Assembly: GCA_943368005.1 (NCBI GenBank)
Contig: CALRKN020000008.1
Span: forward strand, 75,705-139,704
DNA length: 64,000 bases
DNA from: Bradyrhizobium ivorense
GTDB taxonomy: Bacteria > Cyanobacteriota > Cyanobacteriia > PCC-6307 > Cyanobiaceae
Reading direction: 5' to 3'
Below the pieces are notes generated by a model. That model was not told the DNA's origin. It did not search any database and worked only from the letters and a program-made list of their open reading frames with translations. Positions within the stretch are counted from its first letter, which is position 1, and every line of letters starts with the position of its first letter. Below, piece by piece: positions 6,210 through 60,557 of this stretch. A program made the position numbers and the translations under genes.

Positions 6210-7589
6210 TCAGTTACCGGACAGGATCCGGAACAGCGAGGCCGCATTCAGCAGGGGGCCCAAAGGAGCCACCGCCTGGGCCAGGAAGTCGTTGCCGCGT
6301 GTCCAGCCATTGCGCGGCACGATCACCACGTCGCCGTTGTGGAGAGCGGGGTTCGCCGGTGAATCCAGGGGCGCTGCGGGATCGAACACGATGGTGCGCG
6401 CCGACACGCTGCCATCGCTCTCCAGGCGAAGCAGGCGCATGTCCCGGGGGTTGGCCCGCAGCGGATTCACGTCTCCGGCCGCCATCACGGCAGCGACCAA
6501 AGGACTGTTGGAGCGCACCTGCTGCAGGCCTGGGGTCTTCACCTCTCCCACCACGGTCACACCGATGGTGCCGGGAGCAAAGTTGGAGGCGGCGGTTCGG
6601 ATCAGAACCTGGTTGGGCTGGACCCCTTCGGCCCGGTTCACCTGCACCATGTCGCCGTCATAGAGAAGGGGGTTCACCGTGGTACCTCCCTCCATCAACA
6701 CGCGCAGATAGTCGAAGCGGTACTCCACAGGTGGGCCGCCCGGAATCGCGCTGGGGCGCTGCAGCACGACATTCGAGAGGTCGGCCACGGCGGTGATGCC
6801 CCCCGCCCGTTGCACCGCATCGACCAGCGTGGGCCAGCCGGCACTCTGAATCTGGGTACCCCCCGCCGCCGGACCGGCTGCCTGGAGATTGGCGCTACCA
6901 GGGCCCTGGGTAAGGCTGTAGAAGCCAGGCTTCTGCACTTCGCCCACCATGGTGATCCGCACCGGCCTGGGGGCCAGCAGGTCGAGATACACCAGGGGGC
7001 GGCGCAGGTAGCGGTCGTAACCGGCGGTGATGCGTTGGCGGGCCTCATCCATGGTGAGCCCCCAAACCGGCACAGAGCCCAGCCGCGGCAGGTTGATCGT
7101 GCCGTCGCTGAGCACCTCCACTTCGGCCTCGTAGCCCTCCACCTTGAACACCGACATCCGCAGGCGATCTCCGGGGCCGAGTCGGTAGCGGAAACCCCGG
7201 CCGGGGTCGGTGGACGGGGCCATGGCCACCGGGGACCGGACCAGACCGGGTGCGGGCACGGCTGCGGGCCGCGGGGCGGGAACCGCAACCGGTGCGCGGG
7301 GGGGGCTGGAGGGGGCAGAAGGGGACATGCCGGGCTGGGGAGCCGTCGTCTCCTCCTGCGGGAGGGGGAACACCGGGCGCTGGGGCTGGGCGGCTGCGGG
7401 ATCCCAGGGGCCCAGGAGCGTGACGGCAGCCAGCCATCCGGCCAGGGACCCAGGTACGACGGCTCGAGGACGGGAAGTGGGCAAGGCGGTGCGACGGCAG
7501 TGGGACAGGGGACGGGACGGGGGCTGCAGCTCTCGGCGGGGACTGTCCCAGGCTCTGGTCGAGCTAATCTTCCCGCACCTTGCACCCAA
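6210..7589 (-). CDS. Outer-membrane polysaccharide export protein (OPX; Wza/KpsD-like, Poly_export + SLBB domains)
   Basis: Poly_export block: YRLGPGDRLRMSVFKVEGYEAEVEVLSDGTINLPRLGSVPVWGLTMDEARQRITAGY. Repeated SLBB-like blocks: VGEVQKPGFYSL, VVGEVKTPGLQQV. Hydrophobic signal-like segment: GSLAGWLAAVTLLG. The true start is uncertain; an in-frame TTG near 7470 is possible. Confidence 0.8.
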   Translation of the reverse strand: MGARCGKISSTRAWDSPRRELQPPSRPLSHCRRTALPTSRPRAVVPGSLAGWLAAVTLLGPWDPAAAQPQRPVFPLPQEETTAPQPGMSPSAPSSPPRAPVAVPAPRPAAVPAPGLVRSPVAMAPSTDPGRGFRYRLGPGDRLRMSVFKVEGYEAEVEVLSDGTINLPRLGSVPVWGLTMDEARQRITAGYDRYLRRPLVYLDLLAPRPVRITMVGEVQKPGFYSLTQGPGSANLQAAGPAAGGTQIQSAGWPTLVDAVQRAGGITAVADLSNVVLQRPSAIPGGPPVEYRFDYLRVLMEGGTTVNPLLYDGDMVQVNRAEGVQPNQVLIRTAASNFAPGTIGVTVVGEVKTPGLQQVRSNSPLVAAVMAAGDVNPLRANPRDMRLLRLESDGSVSARTIVFDPAAPLDSPANPALHNGDVVIVPRNGWTRGNDFLAQAVAPLGPLLNAASLFRILSGN

Positions 7590-7627
7590 TCGTGAAGGCG
7601 AAGGAAGGGAGCCCTCCCGGCGGAGCC

Positions 7628-8563
7628 ATGCTGAACCCCCCTGGCCCGGTTTCCCTCCCGCTCCAGCTGGTCGAACGGGAACTTTCCAGCTTTCGCCTGT
7701 ACTCGTCCCAGGGCCTCGACCTCTACCTGCTGCCAGGTGAGCGCTTCGCCCCCTACGCCGATGCGGTGGGCATCCTCAGGGAGCTCACCTACCGCCAGCA
7801 GCTCTCAGGTTCAGGCCACAGCCACGACCTCGACAGCCGGGATCCCCACTACGACCACTTCCTCCTAGTGGAGGGCAGCAGTGGCGAACTGGCCGGTTCC
7901 GCCCGCCTGCAATTCGTGCCCCAGTGCCACGAGGCCGAAGCGGAGCTGCGGCTGCCCCAGGGGTCGCAGTCCTATTTGGAACACGTCTATCCCGGCCTGA
8001 AGGCCTCATTGGCCCGCCAGGGCAACCACTTGGAAATCGGCCGGGTCGCCCTCGCCCCCCGCTTCCAGCGGCTTCCCCACACGCTGATGTGCCTGTTCCG
8101 GGGAGGCCTGCAGGTGGCCGTGAGCTCCGGCTACGGCTCCATTCACGGGTTGGTGTCGTACAACCACTTCGCCCATGCCGATGCCGTGAACGAGCGGTTC
8201 CTGAGCAGCCTGATGCGGCCGCCGTTCCTGGATACCCGCCAACCCTGCCCCCAGCCCCGCCACCCCCTGGAAGCCATCCAGGCCAGCACCAGTCCGGGCC
8301 CGACGCACACGATCCAGGAACTGGAGCAGCTGATCCGCGCCGAATTGGCGCCCTCGTTCCGCCTGCCCGTGCTGCTGCGCCAGTACATCAACCTGATGGA
8401 GGCACGGGTGCGCAACCTCTCCCTGGCCCGCGATTTCAACCAGATCACCGAGATCCTGATGGCCGCCGACCTCAAGCGGATACCCAGTCGTCGCCTCAGC
8501 CATTTCATCGACTTTGCCCATGAGCCCGTCTACCGGCGCTTCAGCTGGTACCGCGGTGGCTGA
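7628..8563 (+). CDS. GNAT-type N-acyltransferase of the OlsB/hemolysin-like family (Acetyltransf_5-like)
   Basis: Blocks line up by eye with OlsB-type enzymes: LRELTYRQQ...DSRDPHYDHFLLV, GSARLQF, LEIGRVALAPRFQR, LPVLLRQYINLMEA, FNQITEILMAADL. ATG at 7628; the track's alternative start is 7580. Confidence 0.65.
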   Translation: MLNPPGPVSLPLQLVERELSSFRLYSSQGLDLYLLPGERFAPYADAVGILRELTYRQQLSGSGHSHDLDSRDPHYDHFLLVEGSSGELAGSARLQFVPQCHEAEAELRLPQGSQSYLEHVYPGLKASLARQGNHLEIGRVALAPRFQRLPHTLMCLFRGGLQVAVSSGYGSIHGLVSYNHFAHADAVNERFLSSLMRPPFLDTRQPCPQPRHPLEAIQASTSPGPTHTIQELEQLIRAELAPSFRLPVLLRQYINLMEARVRNLSLARDFNQITEILMAADLKRIPSRRLSHFIDFAHEPVYRRFSWYRGG

Positions 8564-38467: not shown

Positions 38468-38912
38468 GTCAACGCCAGGCCGAGCTGCTCCTTACTCTCG
38501 CAGCAATGAGGTCTGGCGGAGCGGAACGACCTCCAGACAGAGGCCCCGGTGAACCAGCAGCCAGAGGGATGCGCCCGCCCCAGGCCCTGAACATATCCAC
38601 CGCCAGATCGGTTTCACCCGGCACTCCCTCATCCCACAGACGCTTCCGCGGCTGCCACGGGAATTGACGGCTGCTCGTGCCGCCATCAATCCTTGTCTGG
38701 CGGAGCCGCCAGCCGATCTACTGGCAAAACTGCGGAAATGTGTTGATGGCGGGAGTGAGCCCTCATGAATGCAGGAGAAGGTAGGCTGCCACCGAAGAGG
38801 TCGCCTGGGGGAGGCCAGATCAGCCGCCGCCAACTGGTCCGATGGGCAGCAGACATAATCCTGGGTAATCGATCAAAAGATGAATACCACTTCTGGAGAA
38901 ACAAGAAGTCAC

Positions 38913-40931: not shown

Positions 40932-42342
40932 GGATAGCTCTCATCGAAGATTCAGCAGCACATAGCACAGCCGCGTCAAACTCAGAGATCCACTTACTGT
41001 ATACAGAAGCATAGGCATCCGTAAGACCTTCAACATAACCAGGGTTCTCGAGCCGAGTTTTCAGCCTCAAGATTGCCGCCAAGAATGTATCACTCGAATC
41101 AAAGATATAAACATAATCATCAAGACCATCTAGGGATACACCTTCAATGCCCTTTGCCGTTGACAAGATAGGTTTTCTTCGGTAAATCGCCTCAAAAGCC
41201 TTCAAGCGACTACCTCCGCCATGCAAAAGAGGAATCAACATGGCATTGGCTTGAGAATAGACTTCATCCAAATCGCTGGCATAGCCTAAATAATGAACAG
41301 CACCTTGCTCATCATAGGTAGGCATAAGCAGCTCCGAACCCTTACCATAAATATTCACAGCAACTAATGCACTGAGCTTTGAAAGATTTGGGATGTATAC
41401 TTGGTCATGAAACCACTGAACACCAAGCGAGTTGGGGAGGTATGAGCAATCTCCAACAAATGAAATGTTTAGCGGCTCATTACTATTCATGCCAGCTAAA
41501 AATAGGGCTGGCAAAGTAGCTGAGTCTTGATCTCTTGATATCACGTTGGGAGCCACGGATATAAGTGCATCTGGGTTAACTGCTGCAGCCCGCACCATGT
41601 CCTGATCTGTCGTTACAAGGATATTCGAGAACTGGGAGATGATCTTCTCCTCGATTAACCTCATATACCGCCAATCCCCGTGAACTGATCGGGCTTCAAC
41701 TGCAGCACCAATCTGCAGCTCACGGAGAATCATCCACTCGACATTATGCATGGATAGCAGGGAAGGGATGCCATGCATCGTGGCAATCCATTCGTACATC
41801 CCCATGTAGGAAAACTCTGCCCAGAATAAATCGGGCCTATATCTTTGAATCACCAAGGATAACAACGCCGAGAGCTCTGGGGTTAGATATCCAGCATAAT
41901 GATGATCAATCTTAGAATGGTGCCCCGCAGGAAACACAGCATGCAAGCACTTTACATGGATCCAATCATCATCAATCAAAGAGATCTTATACGGGTCCCT
42001 GGAAATAAAGTGTGGACATAGCTCAAGGGTGATTAAATTATAGTGCTGTCGCAGGCACGAACAAATATTTTGAGTTCGGATTGCGCCTCCCTGGCTACGA
42101 CCAAAAAACAAATACGGTGATAGAAGGAGAATTGTTTTCCGAGACCTCTGGAATGAAAATGCAGCTAGACCTTGGCGCAATCCCGAGGAATGCAAGTGAT
42201 TCAATATACTTAATCGCTGATTGTTCTCAATCCCTAGCTTTGGATTGGGGTTAAACTTGCTATTCTGATGGAAGTCACAGAGTTGCAGATAGTAGTGGTC
42301 ATGGGGCGAGGGAGAAAACTCATGCTTATCCATGAAGGTCAT
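40924..42342 (-). CDS. Glycosyltransferase family 4 (GT-B)
   Basis: ANAMLIPLLHGGGSRLKAFEAIYRRKPILSTAKGIEG (EX7E-type region). The N-terminal LLLSPYLFFGRSQGGAIR is typical of the GT4 acceptor domain. Confidence 0.75.
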   Translation of the reverse strand: MTFMDKHEFSPSPHDHYYLQLCDFHQNSKFNPNPKLGIENNQRLSILNHLHSSGLRQGLAAFSFQRSRKTILLLSPYLFFGRSQGGAIRTQNICSCLRQHYNLITLELCPHFISRDPYKISLIDDDWIHVKCLHAVFPAGHHSKIDHHYAGYLTPELSALLSLVIQRYRPDLFWAEFSYMGMYEWIATMHGIPSLLSMHNVEWMILRELQIGAAVEARSVHGDWRYMRLIEEKIISQFSNILVTTDQDMVRAAAVNPDALISVAPNVISRDQDSATLPALFLAGMNSNEPLNISFVGDCSYLPNSLGVQWFHDQVYIPNLSKLSALVAVNIYGKGSELLMPTYDEQGAVHYLGYASDLDEVYSQANAMLIPLLHGGGSRLKAFEAIYRRKPILSTAKGIEGVSLDGLDDYVYIFDSSDTFLAAILRLKTRLENPGYVEGLTDAYASVYSKWISEFDAAVLCAAESSMRAIHE

Positions 42343-43093
42343 CGACAGGCCGACCTGGAGACTGATGCTTGTTCGCTGAAAAAAGGGCAGATATGAGCTG
42401 AATAAATCTATACTGACTATGTCGATACTGCTGAATCAGCCCCAATGCCTTTGACTCTTTGAGTGTCATCTGAGAATGAGAACCGAGAAGCATTGAATCA
42501 AGCTTTGCACAGTGCTCATCAGATTCTCTCAAATGCCCTAAAGCAATAGCAAGCTTTCTGCGAAGACGATTTGAGCTATCATGATAGTCGCGCGACCAAC
42601 AATCCAAGACTGAGTTTACGGTGATATTCAGTGCTAATCTGTCGACGCAATCAAAGTCAGGTTCAGATCCAAATCTGATACTCTTATCTTCTAGAAAGCG
42701 GTATGCAGCTGCAAGTTGTGGCGAAAGCCTGAGAATCTCTTTCGTAAGGATTGACAGAACAGGATCTGAAGAATTAGGGAGGCCAATTGATTCGTGCCTA
42801 TAATCGGACGACTGAGTATCGATCAGATTCCTTACTGCTGCCAGCGGAATTTTTTCAAATCTCCAAAGAGCGCATATGAAATATCCTCGCTCGGCAAGCG
42901 CATATGCATTCATTATGTCTTCCACTGATTTAGCGCTTTCCGTGAATATACTCTCCAGGCCAGGATAGAGTACTAGTGTATGATTTCTATCGCTTTGATT
43001 TATAGAAACTTTCTTAAGCCCAGCTTGGTGAAGCAGATCCAAACCGGCTTGAGAAACCGCATGAGGCCCAATCCAGCTCAACAGTCTTGCCAT
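42326..43093 (-). CDS. Hypothetical protein (family A, copy 3); coupled to the downstream GT4
   Basis: 255 aa, low GC. The N-terminus LSWIGPHAVSQAGLDLLHQAGL and the block ILTKEILRLSPQLAAAYRFLED are collinear with copies 1 and 2. Overlaps the next gene by 17 nt. Confidence 0.55.
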   Translation of the reverse strand: MARLLSWIGPHAVSQAGLDLLHQAGLKKVSINQSDRNHTLVLYPGLESIFTESAKSVEDIMNAYALAERGYFICALWRFEKIPLAAVRNLIDTQSSDYRHESIGLPNSSDPVLSILTKEILRLSPQLAAAYRFLEDKSIRFGSEPDFDCVDRLALNITVNSVLDCWSRDYHDSSNRLRRKLAIALGHLRESDEHCAKLDSMLLGSHSQMTLKESKALGLIQQYRHSQYRFIQLISALFSANKHQSPGRPVDDLHG

Positions 43094-43220
43094 GGGAGTG
43101 AATAGCTATCCGACCAAAGAGAGAAGATGATCGCGCAGGCAATTGGTATCGAATAAAGTGACTGAAGACATCCAATTCAAAGATCATCCATGCGTGCACT
43201 TCAATACTTAGTACTGATGG

Positions 43221-43976
43221 TTAAGAGCCATATTGAAACAACATCTCAAGAAAAGACATCAGGTCGTCTTCGCGGCACTCATGAAGCAATTCTTTTCGAT
43301 GAACACAAAACCAATCATAGCCACAATTGCCTAAACATGTGATCGAGTTAATCAGGGTGTCTGTATCAAGACTACTGGAGTAAGGCGGCAAATACTTGTT
43401 CAAAAGCTTGCGGGAAAGAATCCTGGAGTTCCATACAATGGTTTGTGGATTACCATCGCCCACAATAGTTGCATAATCTAAATATGGATGAAAAAGCTTA
43501 ATGAGGAGCAAAGCTTTATAGGTATCGCCATGCCACGCCAAAAGATCAGGGCTTCTCTCCTCTGACGTAGCCCTACTGCGCGCTTCTACGCATGCTGTGG
43601 CGTCTCGCATCGCCGAAAATCGATCGCATGGAATCGTATCGTCTAGAACGATAATTGACTTTCTTTTGGCATGGTTCAGGCAATGACAAAAGTCTCGATA
43701 GGCCTGATCGAAAGTGTGGAGGCCATCAATGAACGCTAGATCAAATTTAACCTTAGGCTCCAGTCGCGAAAAGAAGATATCGCTTGATTCTTCATAAAAT
43801 AATACTCCATCTTTGGCAAAGTTGGAAGTGTTAAACCGGAATGACGGATCAACAGCAGTCTTTTCCTCAAAGGTCAGAGAGTTAAACGTCGCACCTGTTT
43901 CGACCCCGATTTCGAGATAACTTTTAACGTTAGCGATACCACCGATTCTTTGCAGTCTTCTCGCGGAGTGGCTCAT
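43221..43976 (-). CDS. Class I SAM-dependent methyltransferase (Methyltransf_24-like)
   Basis: SYLEIGVETGATF (motif I), FDLAFIDGLHTFDQAYRDF, IIVLDDT. Confidence 0.75.
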   Translation of the reverse strand: MSHSARRLQRIGGIANVKSYLEIGVETGATFNSLTFEEKTAVDPSFRFNTSNFAKDGVLFYEESSDIFFSRLEPKVKFDLAFIDGLHTFDQAYRDFCHCLNHAKRKSIIVLDDTIPCDRFSAMRDATACVEARSRATSEERSPDLLAWHGDTYKALLLIKLFHPYLDYATIVGDGNPQTIVWNSRILSRKLLNKYLPPYSSSLDTDTLINSITCLGNCGYDWFCVHRKELLHECREDDLMSFLEMLFQYGS

Positions 43977-45020
43977 AAAGAATGAATTCCTGTACAGGGA
44001 TTATGGCACATTGTGTTGTCCAACAGATTCCCCTCACTCCACAGCCAGAGGGTCTCGGCCAGCTTGGGAGCGAGCTCTGGTTGTCGTCCAAGGAACACCA
44101 AGAGCTCGTGGCAGGCAAGGATCCCGAGTCACCCCATCGGCTTCAGCTTTCTCTTTCCAATCAACTATCCATCAAATCCCACTTGAATACCACCACAATC
44201 CCGGATTAAGCATCATTCAATTCTGAGTAAATCAACATTGGCCACTCAACTAATAATGCCTTATCGTGCACCGAGAGTAGTTCAATGCGACTCGGCAGGG
44301 TTGTAATTGCATCGACTACGCAATGAATGGGCCTGCCTTGGCCTGCAAGACAAGGCGCATGGGATGCCCATGAAGATCGAAAGGAATTTCTCCCCAAGAA
44401 ATCAGGAGATTTAGTATAATTTATTCATTGCACAACAACTAACTTTTGGCCGTTCTCGTGCAGTCACACACAGATTGTATCGGCTGGCATTAGGAGCAGA
44501 GACGAACTCTGCCCTGTTCAGTCATTGATCCAAAGCAAAATATACCATTCTTGAATGCCAACGCTGCCAAGAGCATTCTTCTTACCTCAAGATTGGGGCC
44601 ATCTGTGGCAGAAACTGTGGCGCAGGCTGTGATCAATGAGTGCCCCGCACCCCGCAGCCTTTTGGCATGGGAATCGCTAAGTCTGCCGAGAACCCACGCC
44701 GGCACCCTTCCTACCGCCACCGTTTAGTTGGGCGATTCAACCAAGCGGGAGGGCGGACCGCCCACGCGTAAACTATCCTCAAACAGGAGAGAATCTCAAC
44801 CATGCTGAAGAGTATGCCCGCGGCTCCAATCGCAAGATTTACAAACTATAATTACAATCCCATGGGTCATTATTACGGTTTATGCAACGAAGCCGCATGC
44901 TCAGCGACTAGCGTGACTTCGATTACGTGCCTAGAGGGAAACAATACGGAACGGATGCCTGAATCACACCTACATAATTCTATTGGTCGACTGAAGAGTT
45001 CTGCGGCCTAAGCAATTGAT

Positions 45021-46310
45021 ATGATTTCAATCAACATCGGCAAGTTTCTCCGGTCCGGCAAAGCAAACCCAGTGCATAATAATAAATTGTCCCGAGCCAA
45101 GTCTATTCATTGTGATGAAGATGTATTGGTTTACCCGTTTGAAAGTCTTTTGCAGGCACCTAATGGCAAGCCTGAGTATCAGGGAGGACCGAGTTGGAAA
45201 GATTGGAGTGAAAATAACCAAGGAAGATTTTTCAGGCAAGGCCGCGCTATTGACGTGGTTCCTTCATCCAGATCATCTCCTAAGCATCATTTCAAAGAAG
45301 GCTTTTGGTGTGGGCCAATATGCAATCATTTCGGTCATCAAATTGCCGATTTTTCAACTCGCATAGTTTGGTATGCCGATGCGATTCGATCTGGAAAGAT
45401 TGCGGCCATTCCTTTTGTATTTGCCAGAAGCCCTCATGATGCAGGCTCCCCATTGCCATCTTTCTTTGTAGAAGTTTGCGAGTGGTTCGGCGTTGACCAG
45501 ACCAGCTTGATGATCGTTGATGAGCATCCGGTCCATTTTGACCGGTTATACTATGCTCCCCAAGGCGAACAAGTTGGTGGACCTGGGCCAAGCAAAAAGT
45601 ACTTAAAAAAGCTTCTAAGCAATCAGCAAGTTGCTTCTGGACATGAGAGCAAAGAACAAGATTTACCTGTATCGGGCAGCAAACTCTTTCTCTCCAGAGC
45701 TGCTATGCGTACAGGCAAAATTGCTGGAGAGTCTGCAGTTGAGGCCATTCTAACCGCCAGTGAGTTCACGATTGTACGTCCAGAACTTCTTTCCTTGCGG
45801 GAACAGCTTTCTTTATATGCTAAAGCTTCGTCTATCTTCGCTTTTGAAGGAAGCGCAGTCCATGCATTGCAACTCTTTGGCGGCATACCAGCAAAACTCT
45901 GTATTGTTCCTCGAATCAGAGGCAATCGAATAGCAGAGCAACATCTTCGTCCTAGAGTCTCTAGCCTTCGATATACAGAGTCTGTTGGACACTCAATCGT
46001 CCCCATGAACAAAGAAGGATCATCCTTAACATGGGAGGGAATTTCCTTCTTGGATCTCGATTTGTTTTTTAACTTGCTTCATGATGAATATCAGCTCGAT
46101 TCTCTGAAGAGTGGTTTATATCCACAGTTGTTTCATCTATCTGAGGCGTTAGACCTGCAGAGTTGGTTTAACGATATGATCGCAGCCGAGCGGATACTGA
46201 CCAATCAAACCCTAGACAGTCTTGCCGATTATCTAAGGACGTCCAACCGCGTTCAATGCATGGAAGTGCTTGCTCAACATACCAAACTTTATCCTTCAAT
46301 CCAACCATGA
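45021..46310 (+). CDS. Glycosyltransferase family 61 / DUF563-like protein
   Basis: GFWCGPICNHFGHQIADFSTRIV matches the GT61/DUF563 HFGH motif context. Also FAFEGSAVHAL. Low GC. Confidence 0.7.
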   Translation: MISINIGKFLRSGKANPVHNNKLSRAKSIHCDEDVLVYPFESLLQAPNGKPEYQGGPSWKDWSENNQGRFFRQGRAIDVVPSSRSSPKHHFKEGFWCGPICNHFGHQIADFSTRIVWYADAIRSGKIAAIPFVFARSPHDAGSPLPSFFVEVCEWFGVDQTSLMIVDEHPVHFDRLYYAPQGEQVGGPGPSKKYLKKLLSNQQVASGHESKEQDLPVSGSKLFLSRAAMRTGKIAGESAVEAILTASEFTIVRPELLSLREQLSLYAKASSIFAFEGSAVHALQLFGGIPAKLCIVPRIRGNRIAEQHLRPRVSSLRYTESVGHSIVPMNKEGSSLTWEGISFLDLDLFFNLLHDEYQLDSLKSGLYPQLFHLSEALDLQSWFNDMIAAERILTNQTLDSLADYLRTSNRVQCMEVLAQHTKLYPSIQP

Positions 46311-46927
46311 GTTGACTCCAGGAATACCAGATAAACGTACTCACGACTCGCCATGACGACACCATGCCAGCATGATTTCCATCATCGATCCTTGCCATGG
46401 CCATTCATTCAACAAGCAAGCGATTGGCGCAAAGTTGACATATCGCGCCATTCATATAATCCTGGACAGAATCAATCGCCGCCCAAAGAGCTCATCGGGT
46501 TCTCGAACACCGCTGGTCCCCGCTCAAATCCTTGAGGCAAACAGGAGTTGTTTGCTCTGTTCCTAAGGATTGTAGGAAGGGGGGTCTCCTCACCATTCGA
46601 GAATCGAATCCTTGGCCAGTTTTCGTTCCACCAGCAGGAGTGTGCATTCGCAGCCTGAGCCGCCCCACCACTGGCGCCATTTCCTTGGGAGCTGGTCTGG
46701 ATTCACGCCTGTTCCACCACCTGTTGGGATCTTCCAGCCAGAGATGAACAGCTCACACCTTGGGTTCACCCAGGGTGCGCATGGCGCGCTGATGCTGCGG
46801 CTGCGCCCCTGGCTGGATCCCATACCCGCCAGCCAGGGGCAATCGACTCAGGCACAGTGTCAACTGGTGAAGCATGGGTGCGGAAACCAGTTGGAGCAGC
46901 GCGAGGACCTCCTTCAGCAAACCCTTG

Positions 46928-52571: not shown

Positions 52572-54059
52572 CTATGGGGCCAGCCATGGGGCCAGGCCAG
52601 CCAGATCGGAGCGAGGCTCAGCCCCGGCAGCCCGCAGACGCCGCAGGACCGCCCGCTCCAGTGCCACCAGGGGAGGATCACTCCAGGGCTCGAATCCGCC
52701 GGACCAAAGACCCTCTTCGGCGATCAGATCGGCGCCCTGATCCAGGGGTGGGCTGAAGGGAGCCTCAACCAGCAGCCACTGCCACTGCACACCCTCTGGC
52801 AGGGGCAGTTCCCGCACGGCGGGCTCCCACTCCAACGGCGCCCACAGCTGGAGGGGGGCGGCCGCCTGCAGGACCTCCAGCCAACCGGGCGGCCACTGGG
52901 GCGCGTTGGGCCAGCCCGGGCCGAACACGTCGGGATCGGCCAGCAGCAGGTGGCGGCTCTCCAGTCGCTCCGGGGCCGCGACCGCAAACCGCCCCGGGTC
53001 GGCCACCAACAGGGCGGGCCCCACTGGCAACGGTGACGCCGCAGCCTGGGTCTGCCGATGCAGCGCCAGACGCCAGACCCGCAACTGTTCGCGGTAAATG
53101 CGATTCCAGAGAAGGGGGTCAGCCACGGCCGTGCTGCGCTGCTCGCCCGGTTCGGGCTCCAGCCAGGGCCAGGTGAGCCAGGGTTTGGGGCCGGCAAAAT
53201 GAATCACCGACAAGCCTTCGGCGCAACCCCCGAGGAACTTCACCAGATACTTCACATTGCAATTGAAGTTCAATGGCATCAAGTCAACGGGTTGATCTAC
53301 GAGGAAAAGATTCCACACTTTCTGATCAGCAAAGCGATCCAACAGGGGGCATACCGGCTCAGCTGCCCGCTCGATCAGCCGTTCAAAACGGTGCTGCTCG
53401 GCATCGCACAGCGACCAGCCGGGCACGGAGAGCACACCGGAATTCAGCACGGGGCGCTGGGTGAACGGCGAGATAGCTGCCCAAGGCCGATCTCCGCAAT
53501 CCGGCACCGCGCGGAACTGCTCACCCTCAGCCCAGAGCGGATCGAGGGCAGCGGTGATCAACAGATCCGCGTCCAGCACCACCACCCGCCGATACCCCCG
53601 CAGCGCGAAGGCCTGGCCATTGAGATAACCGAGCATGCCGATCCGCTGGCGATTGCGCGAATCGGTGGGCACCTGCGCAGCCCAGTCTGGCTGGGGCTGA
53701 ACAAAGTGAATCGCTGGGTGAATGGTTTCCAGCCTGCGCTGGAGAAAGGAACCCAGGCTGCCGTCGTGCACCACCCACACCGGAGCGGTGAGCTGGGGAT
53801 ACGTCGCCCGCAGACTCAGAAGCATGGCCTCCAGTCCCCGGTAGAAGCGATCGTTGGCAACCGTGAGGAATGCCACGTTCGGCCCAGGGTCTAGGGGGTC
53901 GAAGCAACGGTGGTGGCGACTGGGCCAGTGCAAGTCCCCCAGGAGCTCCTGTTCACTGCGACGCAGCGGCCCCCCCCGCAAACGCAACTGCTCAGCCTGT
54001 TGCCGGGCAGCCTGCTCCAGCTCCCGACGACAGAGCCAGCCGTAGGCATCTTCACTCAA
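52572..54059 (-). CDS. Glycosyltransferase family 8 domain protein (495 aa)
   Basis: NVAFLTVANDRFYRGLEAMLLSLRATYP, VVVLDADLLITAALDPLW (DxD), VIHFAGPKPW. The TTG start overlaps the kpsE stop by 4 nt. Confidence 0.75.
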   Translation of the reverse strand: MSEDAYGWLCRRELEQAARQQAEQLRLRGGPLRRSEQELLGDLHWPSRHHRCFDPLDPGPNVAFLTVANDRFYRGLEAMLLSLRATYPQLTAPVWVVHDGSLGSFLQRRLETIHPAIHFVQPQPDWAAQVPTDSRNRQRIGMLGYLNGQAFALRGYRRVVVLDADLLITAALDPLWAEGEQFRAVPDCGDRPWAAISPFTQRPVLNSGVLSVPGWSLCDAEQHRFERLIERAAEPVCPLLDRFADQKVWNLFLVDQPVDLMPLNFNCNVKYLVKFLGGCAEGLSVIHFAGPKPWLTWPWLEPEPGEQRSTAVADPLLWNRIYREQLRVWRLALHRQTQAAASPLPVGPALLVADPGRFAVAAPERLESRHLLLADPDVFGPGWPNAPQWPPGWLEVLQAAAPLQLWAPLEWEPAVRELPLPEGVQWQWLLVEAPFSPPLDQGADLIAEEGLWSGGFEPWSDPPLVALERAVLRRLRAAGAEPRSDLAGLAPWLAP

Positions 54060-55375
54060 CGGCGATCAACAATCCCAAGAACAAACGAACTGAGTCCCCA
54101 GACCACAACCAATCCCCCCAGGCTGGCCAGAAAACCCTGCCAGCGCCAGTCGATGTACTGCAGTTCGGGCAAGACCGGCTCAGCCAGCCGCACCAAGAAC
54201 TTCACCTGCTTCTGGCTGTTCTGACGACTGTTGTTTGCCGCTGTGATCGCTGATTTGAGCGCTTCGGTGGCCAGCACCACCTCCGTCTCCAGTTTGGAGC
54301 CCTCGGCCACCACCCGGTTCAGGTCCCGGCCTTCCGGATTCACCAGCTCGGCACGCTCCTCCTGAATCAGACGCTCCAATTCACGGACCTGATCGGTGAT
54401 GTAGGCAACTTCAGGCGTGGAGTGGTCCTTGAACTGACGCTTGAGGCTGGCTTCCTGAACCCTCAGATCCACCAACTGGCTTTCCAGAGCCGTGATGTAG
54501 CTGGTAGTGCCGGCGGCTGACTGGGCTGGGTCCAGCTCACCGTACTGATTCTTGAACGCATTGAACGCCAGCAGGGCCCCATCCAGGCGCTGACGGGACC
54601 GTTGCACTTCCTGCTCGGCAAACCGCTGCTGGGTGGTACTGATGCTCTGGTTCACACGGTTGAGAAAGACTTCGGCCTCCTCAAGCAACAATTGGTTGAG
54701 ACGAAAAGCAGGTTCGGGAGCCAGGCCAATGGTGGAGAGATTGATCACCCCCGTGAGGTCCTGGGGAACCACGAACACCTGGCGCCGAAAGAACGCGATC
54801 TGCTGGTCGAGATTGGCGTCCTGACGCAGGCCAGCAAAGGGGTCCCGGCTATCGCGAGCCCAGGTCTTCTCCGGGTTGAGGCGGAGAAACACCCGCTTCA
54901 TCACCTCCGGGGAAGTGAGATACACCGCCAGGAATCTGCCATCTTCCAGGGAACCGAGCATGGTGGGGCCGGCCAGGGTAGTGCCCAGCAAACTGGAACC
55001 CGTGCTCGCCGGCGCCTCCGGCAGCCGCACAATGAAACTGGACTCAACCTGAAAACGGTTCCGGCCGATCGAAAAGAAATAAACCGCCGAACCAACGGCT
55101 ACGAGGCCCGCCATGATCAGGGGCCAGGGCAGGCGGATCACAGGCTCCAGCGGAGCTTTCAAACGCTGCCGCAAACTGAGGCCCGTCACTGAAGGGTTTC
55201 GCACGATGGGAGTGGCTTCAGTTTCCGGGTCAGAGCCACGTCTAGACCGCATGGAGTGCGAGCCCATGGCGGCGATCCAGCGCTGCAGAGGATGGATCAC
55301 GATGCGAGATGCGCGGCGATGGAGAGAAGGCAACGGGTTGCGGGAAATGCGGGAACGAAACGACTGGATCACCAT
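54056..55375 (-). CDS. kpsE: Capsule polysaccharide export inner-membrane protein KpsE (PCP-3)
   Basis: N-terminal TM (WPLIMAGLVAVGSAVYFF), FQVESSFIVR block, a long coiled periplasmic region, and a C-terminal TM (GFLASLGGLVVVWGLSSFVLGIV). Located next to kpsM. Confidence 0.8.
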   Translation of the reverse strand: MVIQSFRSRISRNPLPSLHRRASRIVIHPLQRWIAAMGSHSMRSRRGSDPETEATPIVRNPSVTGLSLRQRLKAPLEPVIRLPWPLIMAGLVAVGSAVYFFSIGRNRFQVESSFIVRLPEAPASTGSSLLGTTLAGPTMLGSLEDGRFLAVYLTSPEVMKRVFLRLNPEKTWARDSRDPFAGLRQDANLDQQIAFFRRQVFVVPQDLTGVINLSTIGLAPEPAFRLNQLLLEEAEVFLNRVNQSISTTQQRFAEQEVQRSRQRLDGALLAFNAFKNQYGELDPAQSAAGTTSYITALESQLVDLRVQEASLKRQFKDHSTPEVAYITDQVRELERLIQEERAELVNPEGRDLNRVVAEGSKLETEVVLATEALKSAITAANNSRQNSQKQVKFLVRLAEPVLPELQYIDWRWQGFLASLGGLVVVWGLSSFVLGIVDRR

Positions 55376-55494: not shown

Positions 55495-56337
55495 TCACAC
55501 ATCATCAGCATCATCCGAATCAGACTGGGCCTTGTCCACAGCAAACAACAATTCCTCGTTGTTGCCATAGATAAACAAACCTAGCCCTACGGAGCCGACC
55601 ACCCAGGCCCAGAAGTAAGGCGCGCTGACTCCTGGAGCGGGGTAGGAAGGGCTAGCGGCGATTCTCATCAATTCAATCCCGTGGGCGATCGGATTCCACA
55701 GAATCCAGGGCCGCACCACATCAGGCACGAAGCTGATGGAGAAAAAAACGCAGGAAGTCCAGAGCAAGATGCGCCTCAGGAACATCTTTACAACCCAAGC
55801 GACGAAGGGCAAGCGATGGCCAATGATCAACGTAACCAGACCAACTCCAAATCCGAGCATGGAGATACCGATGAACAAGAACACAGCATGGCCAATGTCT
55901 TGCACGGCAAATTGCCACTCCCACAGAGAAACTCCAAACACAAAAGCGAGCACAAGCAAGCCAAAGATTTGAGACAAAAGCAGCGTATTGCCCAGCAAAG
56001 AGTCCAAGGGCTTTAAGCGGCGATAAAAATAGAGTTCGCTATTCTTTTCAACGCCACTGATTGCCTTAATTGCAATATCTGAAAACATGAAAAAAGGAAC
56101 GAACCCCAGCGCCATCCAAAGCACCGCGTTCATGTAGTGGTCATCTCCGGACCCTCCCAGAAAAATCCGCAGGGCGAGAAAAGTGGCGATCAAAGCAAGA
56201 GGCTCAATAAAAACCCCCACCAGGCCGAAGGTACCCTTCTTGGCCCGCAATTGCATTTCCCGACGCGCCACCGCGCCAACCACCCGCAGCTGCAGCAACA
56301 ACTGGGACAACACAAGCCTGGGGGTGACGCGCCGCAT
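55495..56337 (-). CDS. kpsM: Capsule polysaccharide ABC-2 type transporter permease KpsM
   Basis: The start at MRRVTPRLVLSQLL overlaps the upstream stop by 1 nt (TGATG). Six hydrophobic spans give ABC-2 topology: FGLVGVFIEPLALIATFLALRIF, FGLLVLAFVFGVSLW, GISMLGFGVGLVTLIIG. GC is lower than in the neighbours. Confidence 0.85.
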   Translation of the reverse strand: MRRVTPRLVLSQLLLQLRVVGAVARREMQLRAKKGTFGLVGVFIEPLALIATFLALRIFLGGSGDDHYMNAVLWMALGFVPFFMFSDIAIKAISGVEKNSELYFYRRLKPLDSLLGNTLLLSQIFGLLVLAFVFGVSLWEWQFAVQDIGHAVFLFIGISMLGFGVGLVTLIIGHRLPFVAWVVKMFLRRILLWTSCVFFSISFVPDVVRPWILWNPIAHGIELMRIAASPSYPAPGVSAPYFWAWVVGSVGLGLFIYGNNEELLFAVDKAQSDSDDADDV

Positions 56338-57407
56338 CAGGGAACTGACCCTGCCTGAACAGCCATCGTAGGGGTGCTGCGCTGCAGCGCCCGGGCCAGG
56401 TGCCGGTTCTGGCTGGCCAGATCCAACAGAGCACTTCGCACCAGCTCCTCCAGCCTCTGGCGCTCCGTACCATCCGCCGGAGGCTCGAACACACGCCGGT
56501 AAAAGGGCAGCTCCGGCATCCGCTGCCGCCAGGGGCAGCCCCACACCTGCAGGGCAAAGGCATCGTTCGCGCTGGCGTAGTGGGCCGCAACCGCAGCGGC
56601 GGCCGGGGCATCAAAGCCGCAATAGCGATCCTGCTGCCAGCCCTCCCGCTCGGCAATCCGCCGCACCGGATCTCTCGCATTGGCCAGGGAGCGCCCCTCG
56701 ATCCCCAGCTCATCGAGCTGCTCACCAATCCGCTGGGCCAGCCACACGCCCCCCGAACCAGGCTGCACGTTCCCCTTGTCCGGGTCGGCCGGACGCCAGC
56801 CGCCCTCAGGTGGAAGGTGCCCCAGGGTGGTCAGGAGGCGATCGAACGGATCTCCCCAGGAACTCCCGTAGGGCAGGAAGGTGCAACGGATGCGCGAATC
56901 ATCAATTAAAGCAGAAAAGAGATGGTTGTAGTCGTAGATATGGCGACGCTCGACCAACTGACATTCAACATAGGCATCAAAAGATTGATGGTGGTAAAGC
57001 CGACGAGTGGAATGGACAAAGCGTGCGTTGATGTAATCCGGCTGATCCCTCAGAAACAACAGCACGTGCAGCCCGAAGCCCTCCGCCTCGAGCAGATCCG
57101 TCAGGGCTCGATGACGACGGCGGTTAGCCAGTGGTTGGGTGAACTGCTCCCCGCTCACGAGCACCAGCTCTCCCGTGGGGGGCAAACCGCGCAGATACCG
57201 GATCCACTCGGGCCAGGCACGCTTGGCCAGGGCGGCGGCTAGGGGCTTATGTTTCTGTGCTGGGGTGCCTGGGTAGCGAAGCAGTACCCCGGCACGCTCC
57301 AGCTCGGCACCGTTGGCCGCCATGCGGCTCTGGATGTAGGAACTGGCGGTTTTGTGGGTGCCGGCATGGATCACCAACCAGCGTTTCTGAGCTGCCATCG
57401 GGGTCAA
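56337..57407 (-). CDS. Hypothetical protein, sulfotransferase-fold-like (family B, copy 1)
   Basis: 356 aa. WLVIHAGTHKTASSYIQ resembles a PAPS 5'-PSB loop (K-x-G/A-S/T-S/T). LFLRDQPDYINARFVHS resembles a 3'-PB motif. Paralog of 59526..60557. ATGA overlap with kpsT-like upstream and TGATG overlap with kpsM downstream. Confidence 0.6.
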   Translation of the reverse strand: MTPMAAQKRWLVIHAGTHKTASSYIQSRMAANGAELERAGVLLRYPGTPAQKHKPLAAALAKRAWPEWIRYLRGLPPTGELVLVSGEQFTQPLANRRRHRALTDLLEAEGFGLHVLLFLRDQPDYINARFVHSTRRLYHHQSFDAYVECQLVERRHIYDYNHLFSALIDDSRIRCTFLPYGSSWGDPFDRLLTTLGHLPPEGGWRPADPDKGNVQPGSGGVWLAQRIGEQLDELGIEGRSLANARDPVRRIAEREGWQQDRYCGFDAPAAAAVAAHYASANDAFALQVWGCPWRQRMPELPFYRRVFEPPADGTERQRLEELVRSALLDLASQNRHLARALQRSTPTMAVQAGSVP

Positions 57408-58264
57408 GCGCGGGATGCCGCCAAAAGTTCGTCTTCAGCTTCGTCCTCATCTTCCGCAGGATCAGCGCCACTTTGATCCACCATTTCGGAGATGCGTCGA
57501 CTCAGCATCTCCCGTCTCTCCAGCTTCTGCCGCCGCGACTCCTCCTTCACCAGTTGAAGACAGACTTCCGGATCTCCCCGGTAAACCAGTTGACCATCCA
57601 CCAGGGCCAGTCCTTCATCGCAGTAGTCGAGAGCGAGATTGGCCTGGCCATTGGCGCTGACAAGCAACGCGCGGCCAGCAATGCGACGCTCAAAACAGTC
57701 ACGGATGCGCACGGACTTCGGGTGAAGGCTGCGATGATCCCAACCTTTGAGGCGACCAACGGCGATCACGTCAAAATCAAAGGCAAGAGAAACGGCAAAC
57801 TTAAGTGCATCTTTCTGGGCATTGGGCCAATCTCCAAAAGGCTCGTGATAGATTCGATCAGAAACCCCAGACAATTCTTGAATCAGCCGGAGATCGGATT
57901 CAACCTGGCCCGGGGCGCTATACACTTCTGCCGCAAAACGAGCGTTCACATAGCCACTCAACTTGCCCGAGAAAGCCTCATTAGTGCCCAGGGGCCAGGA
58001 TACGGAACAGGAATGCTCCAGCGTGCCTGAATCGAGAGCCTCCACGCCACTGAGACAACCCACCAGCGCCCTGGATTCGGGACCATTTACAGCAAAAATC
58101 CCGAGTTTTTGACCTGGGAAAATATCCAGAGAAAGGTTGGTAAACGCGGGGTAGGTTTGATTGACCCCCTCCACAACCTTTTTTGAGGCGTCGCGCAACT
58201 GAACAATGGCGGTCGGCTGCACGGGGAGCGACCCTTGGGGCATGGATGCGGGCAGGCGGTGCAA
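57404..58264 (-). CDS. kpsT: KpsT-like ABC transporter nucleotide-binding-domain homolog with degenerate catalytic motifs
   Basis: Collinear with KpsT: FTNLSLDIFPGQKLGIFAVNG..., SWPLGTNEAFSGKLSGYVNARFAAEVY, LKFAVSLAFDFD. However, Walker A reads NGPESRA, the signature region reads WPNAQKD, Walker B/Glu reads FDVIAVGR, and the H-loop reads LVSANG. An alternative ATG start is at 58243. Confidence 0.75.
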   Translation of the reverse strand: MHRLPASMPQGSLPVQPTAIVQLRDASKKVVEGVNQTYPAFTNLSLDIFPGQKLGIFAVNGPESRALVGCLSGVEALDSGTLEHSCSVSWPLGTNEAFSGKLSGYVNARFAAEVYSAPGQVESDLRLIQELSGVSDRIYHEPFGDWPNAQKDALKFAVSLAFDFDVIAVGRLKGWDHRSLHPKSVRIRDCFERRIAGRALLVSANGQANLALDYCDEGLALVDGQLVYRGDPEVCLQLVKEESRRQKLERREMLSRRISEMVDQSGADPAEDEDEAEDELLAASRA

Positions 58265-58320
58265 GGCAGTGGAGCAACCCTAGCCTGGGTGCCCAACCCC
58301 ACTTGCCCAGCGGCACGCCC

Positions 58321-59535
58321 GTGACCCTTCTCCGTCGCCGCCAGCTGCTGATCGGGCTTGCCAGCGCCGGGCTGGCCGGCTCCCTGGCCAGGCAGCAATC
58401 GGCCCTGGGCCGTCCGTCGAATCTGGATGGGCGCCTGCTCAGCCTGCCGTTCGTTTCGGGCGAGGGCGGCTACAGCTGTTACCGCACCCCTGGGCTGGCG
58501 GTGAGCGCCCAGGACACGGTGCTGGCCTTCTGCGGCGGCCGGGTAGATGACTGCGGGGACGAGGGCAATATCGATGTGCTGCTGCGGCGCTCCAGCGATG
58601 GCGGCCGCAGCTGGGGCCCGCTGCAGGTGATCGCCAACGACGGGCCCAACCCCTGCAAGATTCCGCTGCCGGTGGTGTTGCCCGGGGGGCGGATTCTGCT
58701 GCTCTGGCTCTGGAATGCCTCGGTGGCGCGGGAGGCCGATCGGGGCACACGGTATGTACGCATCACCCATTCCGACGATGACGGCCGCAGCTGGGTTCCC
58801 TCCCGCGACATCACCGACCAGGTGCGACTACCTGGCTGGAAGTCCTGGTACGGGATCGGCCCGGGCCATGGAATCGTGAAACTGCTGGAACCGGCTGCCG
58901 GCCGGATCGTGGTGCCAGCGCGCCACAGCGTTCCCGGCCTGGGCGGGGCCTCCCACCTGCTGCTCTCCGACAACGGCGGCCTGAGCTGGCGGGTGGGCGC
59001 CGTGGCAGGTTTCCGGCCGTCCAGCGAATGCGCAGTGGCGGAACTGGGCGATGGCAGCTTGATGCTGAACAGCCGCAGCGGTGGCCAGCGGGTGGTGAGC
59101 ATCAGCCGGGACGGCGGCGAGACCATGGCCAGCAGCGGGCCGGAGCCCCAGCTGATCGAGCCAGCCAATGGCTGTCAGGCCAGCTTGCTCACCTACGCCT
59201 TTACGGCCAACCGTCAGGCCCTGCTGCTGTTCGCCAATCCGGCCGATGCGCAGCACCGCACCAACGGCCGACTGCGCCTCAGCCGTGACAACGGCCGGCG
59301 CTGGAGCCGGGGCTTCGCCTATGACCAGGGGCCGGGCAGCTTCAGCGGCTACAGCGACCTGGCCCGCTTCGCCAATGGCGACGTGGCCCTGCTAGCGGAA
59401 TCCGGAGCCAGCTTCGCCAAGGTCCGCGGCGCAGACAAGCGGCGCAACCGCCAGCTCCTGGACGGCCGGGGCGATCGGCGCCACGACGGCATCGCCTTTC
59501 AGCGGATTCCCTTTGCGCTGGTGGCTCAGGCCTGA
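58321..59535 (+). CDS. Exo-alpha-sialidase (GH33, BNR/Asp-box beta-propeller) with Tat signal peptide
   Basis: GTG at 58321 gives (M)TLLRRRQLLIGLASAGLAGSLA, a twin-arginine signal. RIP-like motif: CYRTPGL. Five Asp-boxes: SSDGGRSW, SDDDGRSW, SDNGGLSW, SRDGGETM, SRDNGRRW. The track ORF begins at 58183 and would overlap kpsT. Confidence 0.85.
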   Translation: MTLLRRRQLLIGLASAGLAGSLARQQSALGRPSNLDGRLLSLPFVSGEGGYSCYRTPGLAVSAQDTVLAFCGGRVDDCGDEGNIDVLLRRSSDGGRSWGPLQVIANDGPNPCKIPLPVVLPGGRILLLWLWNASVAREADRGTRYVRITHSDDDGRSWVPSRDITDQVRLPGWKSWYGIGPGHGIVKLLEPAAGRIVVPARHSVPGLGGASHLLLSDNGGLSWRVGAVAGFRPSSECAVAELGDGSLMLNSRSGGQRVVSISRDGGETMASSGPEPQLIEPANGCQASLLTYAFTANRQALLLFANPADAQHRTNGRLRLSRDNGRRWSRGFAYDQGPGSFSGYSDLARFANGDVALLAESGASFAKVRGADKRRNRQLLDGRGDRRHDGIAFQRIPFALVAQA

Positions 59536-60557
59536 TCGGCCAGCGGGGCCTCCTGCAGGCCAGCGGCGAGCAATTGGTCGACCAGGGCGAGCATCTGGCG
59601 GCGCTCCTCAGGGCTGCGGGGCCGCACGGGGCTGGCCTGGGGGGTGGGCCGGGGAAACAGCTCCCGCCAGTCGCAGCCCCAGACGCGGCGGGCAAAGCGG
59701 TCGTTGCTGGCGCCATAGCGGCGCTCGATGCGGGCAAGCAAAGGCTCATGGAGCCCCTGGAAAGGCTCGGCCGGCCAGCCCTGCTCAACGGCCAGCCGCT
59801 CCAGCTGCTCCCGGATCCGGGCCTTGCAGGAACTGCTGTTCCAGGCCATCGGGTACTGCTCAGCCAGCCGGCGGGCGATGCGCTGGGCAATCCAGACGGC
59901 CTGCCAGCCCGGTTGCACATTGGTCCCTTCGCTCAGGTGCCGCAGACCTTCGAGATCCGACACGCCCACCGCCTGCAGCAGCCGCTCACAGGGGTCCGCC
60001 TCGCCGGTGCGGAAGGGCAGGAAGCGGCACTGCACCTCGGGGCGATCCAGCACGTCCGCGAACAGCTCCAGGTAATCGCAGTTGCTCTCCCCACCTGTGC
60101 GCATGGTTTGCATCACATAGCGGGGGAAGGAAACAGCCAGATAGAAGCGCTTGAGCAGCTGGGTATAGCGGGAATTGAGGTAGGTGGGCTGATCCCGCAC
60201 GAAGGCCACCAGCTCCAGGCCCATGCCGGAGCGGTTGAGCAGGTGCAGCAGGTCGCCAAGCAGGCTGCCTTCACCGCCGCACCCCGGTTCCGTGAGCACG
60301 AGGGAAAGGATCTCCGCCGACACCAGCGGGCGACAGCCCTGGCGTTGGGCCTTGTGCAGCAGCTGCTCCCAGGGCTGGAGATCCCCCTGCCGCAGGGCCT
60401 TCACCAGCTCGAGGTGGTCGCAGCGGCGCTTGGGGTAGAGCAGTCGCTGCTGGCGCAGAAACGGCTGATTGCTCTTCAGCCGGTGCTGGATGTAGGTGGA
60501 CGCCGTCTTGTGGATGCCCACATGCAGGATCAGGGAGCGTGCGTCCACCCGTTGCAC
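59526..60557 (-). CDS. Hypothetical protein, sulfotransferase-fold-like (family B, copy 2)
   Basis: 343 aa. LILHVGIHKTASTYIQHRL and AFVRDQPTYLNSRYTQ. Collinear with 56337..57407, including C-terminal ASNDRFARRVWGCDWRELFP versus ASANDAFALQVWGCPWRQRMP. Confidence 0.6.
   Translation of the reverse strand: MQRVDARSLILHVGIHKTASTYIQHRLKSNQPFLRQQRLLYPKRRCDHLELVKALRQGDLQPWEQLLHKAQRQGCRPLVSAEILSLVLTEPGCGGEGSLLGDLLHLLNRSGMGLELVAFVRDQPTYLNSRYTQLLKRFYLAVSFPRYVMQTMRTGGESNCDYLELFADVLDRPEVQCRFLPFRTGEADPCERLLQAVGVSDLEGLRHLSEGTNVQPGWQAVWIAQRIARRLAEQYPMAWNSSSCKARIREQLERLAVEQGWPAEPFQGLHEPLLARIERRYGASNDRFARRVWGCDWRELFPRPTPQASPVRPRSPEERRQMLALVDQLLAAGLQEAPLADQA

Follow-up and report, generated by a model that had tools for sequence, protein, structure and literature searches.

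The window analyzed here, a 64,000-nucleotide (64-kb) stretch of contig CALRKN020000008.1, is one large kps-type capsule island with KpsD, KpsS, KpsC, KpsM, and KpsE. Upstream of kpsM, on the same strand, it carries a gene for a homolog of KpsT, the KpsT-type nucleotide-binding domain (NBD) of ATP-binding cassette (ABC) exporters, in which all of the ATP motifs have been replaced and which we refer to as pseudo-KpsT. The export module around this gene is composed as follows.

57404..58243, minus strand: pseudo-KpsT coding sequence, 279 aa from the ATG at 58243.
56337..57398, minus strand: gene X, 353 aa, between pseudo-kpsT and kpsM.
55495..56337, minus strand: KpsM, ABC-2 permease, 280 aa (NCBIfam KpsM, E 7.6e-26; Pfam ABC2_membrane, E 2.5e-5).
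54056..55375, minus strand: KpsE, a PCP-3 polysaccharide co-polymerase (TIGR01010 BexC/CtrB/KpsE, E 2.4e-43).

The open reading frame (ORF) described in the initial annotation is present in the ORF listing at 57404..58264 on the minus strand, but the TTG at 58264 is not its likeliest start. The ATG at 58243 is the probable start, giving a protein of 279 aa as in the annotation of the closest homologs, P0001 and P0003. Residue numbers throughout nevertheless follow the 286-aa numbering of the longer ORF (TTG 58264 start). Read directly from the sequence, the TGA stop of pseudo-kpsT (57406-57404) is followed by 5 nt and then by the ATG of gene X. Of the translational coupling to the next gene that had been described, the tight spacing therefore stands, but with a 5-nt gap between stop and ATG an overlap is unproven. 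At the next junction the ATG of kpsM overlaps the gene X stop (TGATG), and KpsM itself has six transmembrane-like segments.

Pfam PF00005 (ABC_tran) gave no match to pseudo-KpsT even at E<=0.1, and the only NCBIfam matches were weak ones to TagH and VexC (E 6e-5 and 1.6e-4). Its best match in the PDB by phmmer was KpsT itself (8tsh_A, from the S. thermodepolymerans KpsMT-KpsE structures 8tsh/8tsi; E 1.1e-16 over residues 37-234), and a profile of 80 family members again placed 8tsh_A (E 1.1e-26) ahead of Wzt (6e-18). In the other direction, a hidden Markov model (HMM) built from seven canonical KpsT sequences matched pseudo-KpsT at E 1.4e-29; degenerate forms scored 79-124 bits with this model, whereas canonical KpsT reached 260-370 bits. 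Pseudo-KpsT shares no more than 27-30% identity with any canonical KpsT, compared with about 50-63% for canonical KpsT among themselves. An AlphaFold2 (AF2) model made on the family alignment had a predicted local distance difference test score (pLDDT) of 91.7 and a predicted template-modeling score (pTM) of 0.84. With this model, Foldseek returned more than 1000 ABC NBD matches, with template-modeling (TM) scores of 0.79-0.82 for KpsT (0.82 for 8TSH) and ~0.75 for TagH and Wzt; both the RecA-like core and the helical subdomain fold are present. The ORF at 57404..58264 is thus, by homology and modeled fold, a KpsT-type ABC nucleotide-binding domain, and phmmer, the family profile, the canonical HMM, and AF2/Foldseek agree with the earlier proposal of a KpsT-derived pseudo-NBD adjoining the kpsM locus.

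The positions of the former motifs were fixed with a HMMER alignment to the S. thermodepolymerans protein (StKpsT) and with MAFFT tables that included 23 canonical KpsT sequences. The canonical reading is given second in each of the following lines.

58067..58093, minus strand: former Walker A (P-loop), aa 58-66, AVNGPESRA against GRNGAGKST.
57815..57829, minus strand: former ABC signature, aa 146-150, WPNAQ against YSSGM.
57752..57778, minus strand: former Walker B and catalytic position, aa 163-171, DFDVIAVGR against DFDYYLIDE.
57728..57751, minus strand: former D-loop region, aa 172-179, LKGWDHRS, with GWD (174-176) against VGD.
57644..57670, minus strand: former H-loop region, aa 199-207, ALLVSANGQ, with NG (203-204) against SH.

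In the former Walker A the second Gly has become Glu63 and the Lys has become Ser64. Gly170 and Arg171 stand in the columns of the Walker B Asp and the catalytic Glu (E151 of StKpsT), and the H-loop His of LVSH is replaced by Gly204. The initial annotation had read a Walker A without its Lys, a WPNAQ signature, a Walker B without Asp or Glu, and NG for the H-loop SH, and in both alignments these strings fall exactly at the motif positions. The canonical D-loop is [SA][VA]GD; in its place the 80 family sequences have an invariant Trp175. All motifs are replaced in every family member, none of which has GK[ST] in the alignment tables, while the 23 canonical KpsT sequences aligned alongside retain them. 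Certain residues have become newly conserved at the former motif positions, namely Asn60-Gly61, an acidic Glu or Asp in the former P-loop (Glu63), Arg or Lys171, Trp175, and an invariant Gln207; an Arg or Lys at or next to the former catalytic Glu is conserved across the Cyanobium, Vulcanococcus, and marine lineages. From its sequence, pseudo-KpsT is predicted to neither bind nor hydrolyze ATP. IMG/KEGG, and NCBI in at least one genome, label members of the family "ATP-binding protein" or "ATPase subunit", and this label is probably wrong.

The same degeneracy is found well beyond this contig. A search of 5.8 billion proteins recovered 94 protein clusters at 41-94% identity, the named ones from Cyanobium or Prochlorococcaceae. 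None of the 94 has a Pfam ABC_tran hit, and after a gap in identity the next proteins (P0095-P0101, at ~28%) are canonical and match PF00005. A scan of GTDB species genomes with patterns specific to the pseudo family found it in 20 species, made up of 19 Cyanobium/Prochlorococcaceae genomes and one Vulcanococcus form, a fully degenerate member of a deeper lineage at 31% identity. Among the carriers is Cyanobium sp. M30B3 (CP073761.1; 3,180,296 bp). Further deep lineages (P0268-P0280 and P0282) came from a profile search of 1.84 billion representatives; none of them retains GK[ST] or the catalytic Glu, and the former motif positions vary from lineage to lineage. A search with a marine pseudo form returned 13 clusters. 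In a neighbor-joining tree, the degenerate proteins were split from all canonical KpsT and a Wzt-type outgroup in 198 of 200 bootstraps, which fits a single ancient loss of the ATP motifs. As judged from these searches and this tree, the family is old, monophyletic, and spread over freshwater and marine picocyanobacteria.

A KpsT-like protein from JGI metagenomes (P0102/P0126) stands apart from this family. It keeps a Walker A-like GGEQSGKS and a Walker B IDE, lacks a signature motif (RRLQLRDR), and groups with canonical KpsT in the tree. It may represent a separately and partially degenerate form.

An ortholog comparison found the substitutions shared by relatives and the gene under purifying selection, with ratios of nonsynonymous to synonymous substitution rates (dN/dS, Nei-Gojobori) of 0.11, 0.10, and 0.10 against homologs of 84%, 76%, and 68% identity. 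Of the alignment columns across the 80 family sequences, 21 do not vary at all and over 40 more are nearly invariant. This constraint is unevenly distributed over the core, for which mean entropy in the family is 1.29 bits. The former Walker A averages 1.65 bits, compared with 0.07 in canonical KpsT, and the former signature, at 2.11 bits against 0.12 in canonical KpsT, is the least conserved core segment. The most conserved region (0.77-0.83 bits) is instead the following.

57914..58009, minus strand: Q-loop region and first helix of the helical subdomain, aa 86-117, CSVSWPLGTNEAFSGKLSGYVNARFAAEVYSA.

The family stretch here is SVSWPLGTN.AF..KLSGY.NARFAAE.YS, with S89, W90, P91, G93, L102, N107, F110, and Y115 invariant, and the pattern SWPxG...L..N.F..Y is common to the family and canonical KpsT. 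In ABC transporters, the face formed by the Q-loop and helical subdomain receives the coupling helix of the permease. On the KpsM side, the TM2-TM3 loop (ELYFYRRLKPLDSLLG) is conserved in pseudo-type and canonical loci alike. By analogy, we infer that aa 86-117 form a KpsM-docking face.

Pseudo-KpsT also carries an extension that canonical KpsT lacks.

57407..57571, minus strand: C-terminal extension, with a helix (aa 232-265) and a disordered acidic tail (aa 266-286), from AF2 and the family consensus.

The charged acidic tail noted at the outset is therefore real, and AF2 resolves it into a predicted helix and a disordered acidic end. The helix has a consensus, PEVCLxLVKEE..R.K.ERR, that is conserved in the family. 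In the marine proteins P0271, P0272, and P0273 the acidic tails finish in a terminal Trp (...DNIW, ...VQLW, and ...DDLW), resembling a short docking motif, and the window protein has an acidic tail without this Trp. An acidic tail (SDSDDADDV) also closes KpsM of the window. Three cysteines, C70, C215, and C235, are invariant in the 80 family members, and two of them, C70 and C235, lack this conservation in canonical KpsT; judging from this conservation, they could form a redox or metal site.

The remainder of the island surrounds this module on both sides.

6210..7775 (stop to stop), minus strand: KpsD-like outer-membrane polysaccharide export protein (OPX; Pfam Poly_export and SLBB).
8856-10211, plus strand: FabF-like ketoacyl synthase.
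10189-12336, minus strand: KpsS-like protein (Pfam Capsule_synth, E 6e-57) with a fused C-terminal acyltransferase domain (PF01553).
12287-14584, minus strand: KpsC-like protein (Pfam Capsule_synth, E 5e-79).
Between KpsC and 52572: many glycosyltransferases, a NeuB-containing ORF, and two sulfotransferases.
52572..54059, minus strand: GT8-like glycosyltransferase (Pfam Glyco_transf_8, E 4.7e-5), with a 4-nt overlap with the end of kpsE.
58183-59535, plus strand: BNR/sialidase-like protein, divergent from pseudo-kpsT, with a twin-arginine-like N-terminus (RRRQLLIGLASAGLAGSLA).
59526..60557, minus strand: X2, a paralog of X (35% identical), so that X and X2 flank pseudo-kpsT.
60580..63857, minus strand: DUF1997 gene and DEAD/DSHCT helicase, the conserved chromosomal anchor of the module (DUF1997 from Pfam on the window, the helicase domain names from ortholog tables).

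The GT8-like gene downstream of kpsE and the BNR gene are both kept in most Cyanobium-type loci. With NeuB encoded in the island as well, the gene content would allow for a polymer containing nonulosonic acid and for a periplasmic enzyme that works on it. The island has a single polytopic membrane protein, KpsM, and encodes no alternative translocase (Wzx, Wzy, or synthase), which leaves no such route there. The statement that the window has no other ABC ATPase held up, as neither a Walker A regular expression nor a six-frame HMM search found a second NBD in the 64 kb.

Gene X was considered as a substitute ATPase and rejected. Its family has an invariant N-terminal HxGxHKTAS.YIQ in a strand-loop-helix arrangement that is P-loop or sulfotransferase-PSB-like. 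X had no sequence match in Pfam, NCBIfam, or the PDB, hhalign against the sulfotransferases of the window was negative, and an AF2 model from two sequences (pLDDT 51) was unusable. It is also missing or displaced in L018, L021, L023, L025-L028, L054, and L056, all of which keep pseudo-kpsT, kpsM, and kpsE, and X is therefore neither an obligate partner nor a substitute motor.

Two further features of the island stand on their own. The ORF at 18140-21364 on the plus strand (1074 aa, stop to stop) has CBS, NeuB, SAF, and xylose-isomerase-like TIM-barrel domains and might represent either a fusion or a read-through of several genes; it has the sole GxxxxGKS among window ORFs of more than 150 aa (GAAAAGKS at 18764). 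An islet at 38900-46400, with a GC content of 0.44-0.49 and a third-codon-position GC content (GC3) of 0.40-0.48 inside a region of ~68% GC, encodes a GT4 glycosyltransferase, a 672-aa ORF, a methyltransferase, and a GT61 glycosyltransferase, and by its composition looks like recently acquired DNA.

Comparison with related loci showed that the trio of pseudo-KpsT, KpsM, and KpsE is constant in all of them, with KpsE following KpsM in each. The order is T-(X)-M-E, compared with M-T-E in canonical modules. The helicase-DUF1997 anchor precedes the pseudo-type module in L001, L009-L027, and L054/L055, the last two being marine TARA contigs that read helicase, fumarase, DUF1997, pseudo-kpsT, kpsM, kpsE. 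Another deeper lineage (L056) again has pseudo-kpsT, kpsM, and kpsE in this order. No second NBD was found within ±10 kb in ~25 pseudo-type loci, where the degenerate ORF is the sole NBD-like one. When canonical KpsT P0111 was used as the query (7971 matches), none of the 120 matches listed was tied to a pseudo-kpsT contig.

Directly after the same DEAD/DSHCT helicase and DUF1997 gene, three other loci carry an intact version of the module.

L058, 5715-12042 (also in L059 and L060): canonical module of KpsM (285 aa), KpsT (277 aa, PF00005, motifs intact), and KpsE (403 aa).

The anchor helicases are 79-92% identical (79-82% quoted for L058-L060). Because the same chromosomal site holds either module type in different genomes, the two appear to be positional alternatives. 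A second canonical site is seen in L004-L008, where FabF, KpsS, and KpsC are followed, after other genes, by KpsM, KpsT, and KpsE; the KpsS and KpsC of the window are each 57% identical to their L004 counterparts beside the canonical kpsMTE. The window therefore includes both sites known here for canonical kpsMTE and has a canonical kpsT at neither. The L058 KpsE is closer to KpsE of the pseudo clade (39-42%) than to other canonical picocyanobacterial KpsE (31%).

The three proteins of the module also diverge differently in the two groups. Among canonical modules KpsT is the best conserved, with median identities of 51% for T, 34% for M, and 29% for E, and L058 compared with L004 follows the same order (63%, 43%, and 31%). 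In the pseudo clade the medians are 56% for T, 70% for M, and 69% for E, and the window compared with its nearest canonical module, L058, gives 27%, 35%, and 41%. This reversal shows that T specifically has been freed from its usual constraint.

Taken together, we consider pseudo-KpsT to be a non-catalytic, KpsT-derived subunit of an old and divergent KpsM-KpsE export module of picocyanobacteria, a reading to which we give a probability of roughly 0.6. Pseudo-KpsT would dock beneath KpsM through the conserved coupling face and act as a non-catalytic clamp or scaffold. Trp175 in the former D-loop and Gln207 in the former H-loop, along with the added C-terminal helix, may stabilize a nucleotide-free dimer, and a pair formed by Glu63 and Arg171 may fill the former Mg-ATP pocket. 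Export of a strongly anionic glycolipid, probably sulfated and of the nonulosonate type, would then proceed through KpsM and be driven otherwise than by ATP hydrolysis at pseudo-KpsT, with membrane potential, polymer synthesis, or a further partner as candidate drives.

Several points weigh against this reading. To our knowledge, there is no ATP-independent ABC-fold polysaccharide exporter, and canonical KpsMT requires ATP hydrolysis for export (PMC11041684). Binding of ATP through non-canonical residues of pseudo-KpsT remains conceivable, and we infer the docking on KpsM, the constitutive dimerization, and the Glu63-Arg171 pair from sequence. The absence of a second NBD covers the window and the locus flanks; canonical KpsT does occur in high-GC picocyanobacteria, and the chromosome may carry a canonical kpsT or a different ABC-2-type NBD at some other locus. 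Long-branch attraction may have inflated the monophyly seen in the distance tree. Finally, GC3 is 0.56 in pseudo-kpsT and 0.64 in kpsM, compared with 0.82-0.87 in neighboring genes, which suggests that the export module has passed from one lineage to another or follows a separate codon regime; module exchange would fit these values and complicate a simple vertical history.

A stronger form of the proposal is that a complex of two KpsM, two pseudo-KpsT, KpsE, and KpsD exports a highly anionic capsule-like glycolipid without any ATP. The dead NBDs would then be a permanent clamp that holds the electropositive canyon of KpsM in a conducting conformation, with transport driven by the pull of the membrane potential on the polyanion, by polymer synthesis, or by a combination of the two. 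We advance this only tentatively, as a possibility clearly less probable than the non-catalytic role itself.

A competent NBD might instead be supplied from elsewhere in the genome. In such a mixed dimer, pseudo-KpsT would pair with a canonical KpsT or another ABC-2-type ATPase that powers KpsM, and since the NBD searches covered the window and the ±10-kb locus flanks, it stays the main rival. One degenerate site is a familiar feature of asymmetric ABC exporters, related high-GC picocyanobacteria have canonical KpsT genes, and the likeness of the KpsM coupling loop in both module types means that a canonical KpsT could in principle dock. However, with Walker A, Walker B, and the H-loop lost on one half and the signature and D-loop on the other, no dimer that includes pseudo-KpsT would have an intact composite site, unlike in the known asymmetric exporters. 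The former signature is the least constrained core segment, so selection does not appear to be keeping it for completing the site of a partner. There is also no NBD in the 64-kb island or in the ~25 related loci, and canonical and pseudo-type modules that share one site in different genomes look like alternatives rather than partners. The heterodimer with one dead site that the initial annotation had offered is weakened by these observations, and we regard it as unlikely.

Slightly less probable again is that the module does not export at all. Here the pseudo-NBD would lock or gate KpsM-KpsE, or scaffold biosynthetic enzymes, while export takes an unlinked route. Dead NBDs are unable to cycle, the acidic tails of pseudo-KpsT and KpsM could mimic a polyanionic substrate, and gene X and glycosyltransferase genes lie among the export genes of the operon, all of which would suit a regulatory role. 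Such a role is harder to reconcile with KpsM being the sole polytopic membrane protein of an island that has no Wzx, Wzy, or synthase-type translocase, and with the retention of KpsD, KpsE, KpsS, and KpsC. The ~70% identity of KpsM and KpsE within the pseudo clade, above that of canonical systems, likewise suggests a working machine.

It is improbable that pseudo-KpsT is a cryptic NBD whose re-invented site still binds or hydrolyzes nucleotide or another phosphorylated ligand. The intact fold and the new conserved residues Asn60-Gly61, Glu63, Arg/Lys171, and Gln207 at some former motif positions would be consistent with a site of this kind. Yet pseudo-KpsT has neither the P-loop Lys nor the Gly-rich loop, where an acidic residue now sits, and it also lacks the Walker B Asp, catalytic Glu, H-loop His, and the Ser-Gly of the signature. 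The former P-loop and signature vary more than other parts of the core, and the deeper lineages disagree among themselves at these positions. Degeneration of a duplicate copy into a pseudogene, or an error of sequencing or assembly, would have nothing but the motif loss in its favor. Both are refuted, along with the locus decay first allowed for, by the intact ORF, a dN/dS of ~0.10, the confident AF2 fold, the tight operon spacing, and alignment tables with the same substitutions in ~94 independent clusters and 20 species genomes.

Among described systems, KpsT (NCBIfam/KEGG K09689; S. thermodepolymerans 8TSH/8TSI/8TSL; E. coli group 2) is the best match in sequence and structure, shares the SWPxG/helical-subdomain region, and is likewise encoded with kpsM and kpsE in a locus having KpsC, KpsS, and KpsD. 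Pseudo-KpsT differs from it in lacking Walker A, the signature, the Walker B Asp and Glu, and the H-loop His, in its altered D-loop, in the added C-terminal helix and acidic tail (~55 aa), in the silence of PF00005, and in the T-(X)-M-E order. Wzt and TagH (TarH) are related type-V exporter NBDs (TM ~0.75), and Wzt too has a C-terminal extension. However, they are active ATPases with canonical motifs and score more weakly than KpsT against the family profile (6e-18 vs 1e-26), and the Wzt extension is a carbohydrate-binding beta-domain, whereas that of pseudo-KpsT is a charged helix.

Functional transporters with one degenerate site that are under selection include TM287/288, TmrAB, TAP1/2, CFTR, ABCB11, Pdr5/Cdr1, and ABCG5/G8. 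In these, the catalytic Glu, the H-loop, or the signature is replaced, the degenerate residues converge on one composite site that still binds ATP through an intact Walker A, and the other site is canonical. Pseudo-KpsT has lost both halves within one polypeptide, including the P-loop Lys, and its homodimer would be without any site. It also resembles pseudoenzymes such as pseudokinases and inactive ATPase-like scaffolds, which combine a conserved fold, lost catalytic residues, and purifying selection with retained partner surfaces, the last a presumed feature of pseudo-KpsT.

Degenerate single sites in asymmetric ABC exporters are already known. We know of no described stand-alone ABC NBD that is fully dead and is the sole NBD encoded with its permease, and a literature search returned no report of a fully dead stand-alone NBD as the only NBD of a permease, nor of a degenerate cyanobacterial KpsT. 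A phylum-wide survey of cyanobacterial extracellular polysaccharide genes identified KpsT through PF00005, which pseudo-KpsT proteins do not match. The E151Q mutation of StKpsMT abolishes secretion (PMC11041684), and since a single Walker B mutation is enough to abolish KpsMT export, a selected, motif-less KpsT as the sole NBD encoded alongside its permease is unexpected.

This family implies a new way of energizing or gating an ABC-2 exporter, an unusual ATPase partner acting in trans, or a transporter turned into a passive conduit or scaffold. ATP-driven NBD dimerization is what defines an ABC transporter. The presence of canonical and dead modules at one chromosomal site in related genomes is a natural experiment. 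The module sits in cell-surface glycan islands of Cyanobium and Synechococcus-type picocyanobacteria, whose surface glycans probably influence grazing, phage adsorption, and aggregation. If export without any ATP proved true, this would be the first ABC exporter turned into an ATP-independent conduit, and one widespread in phototrophs that rank among the most abundant on Earth.

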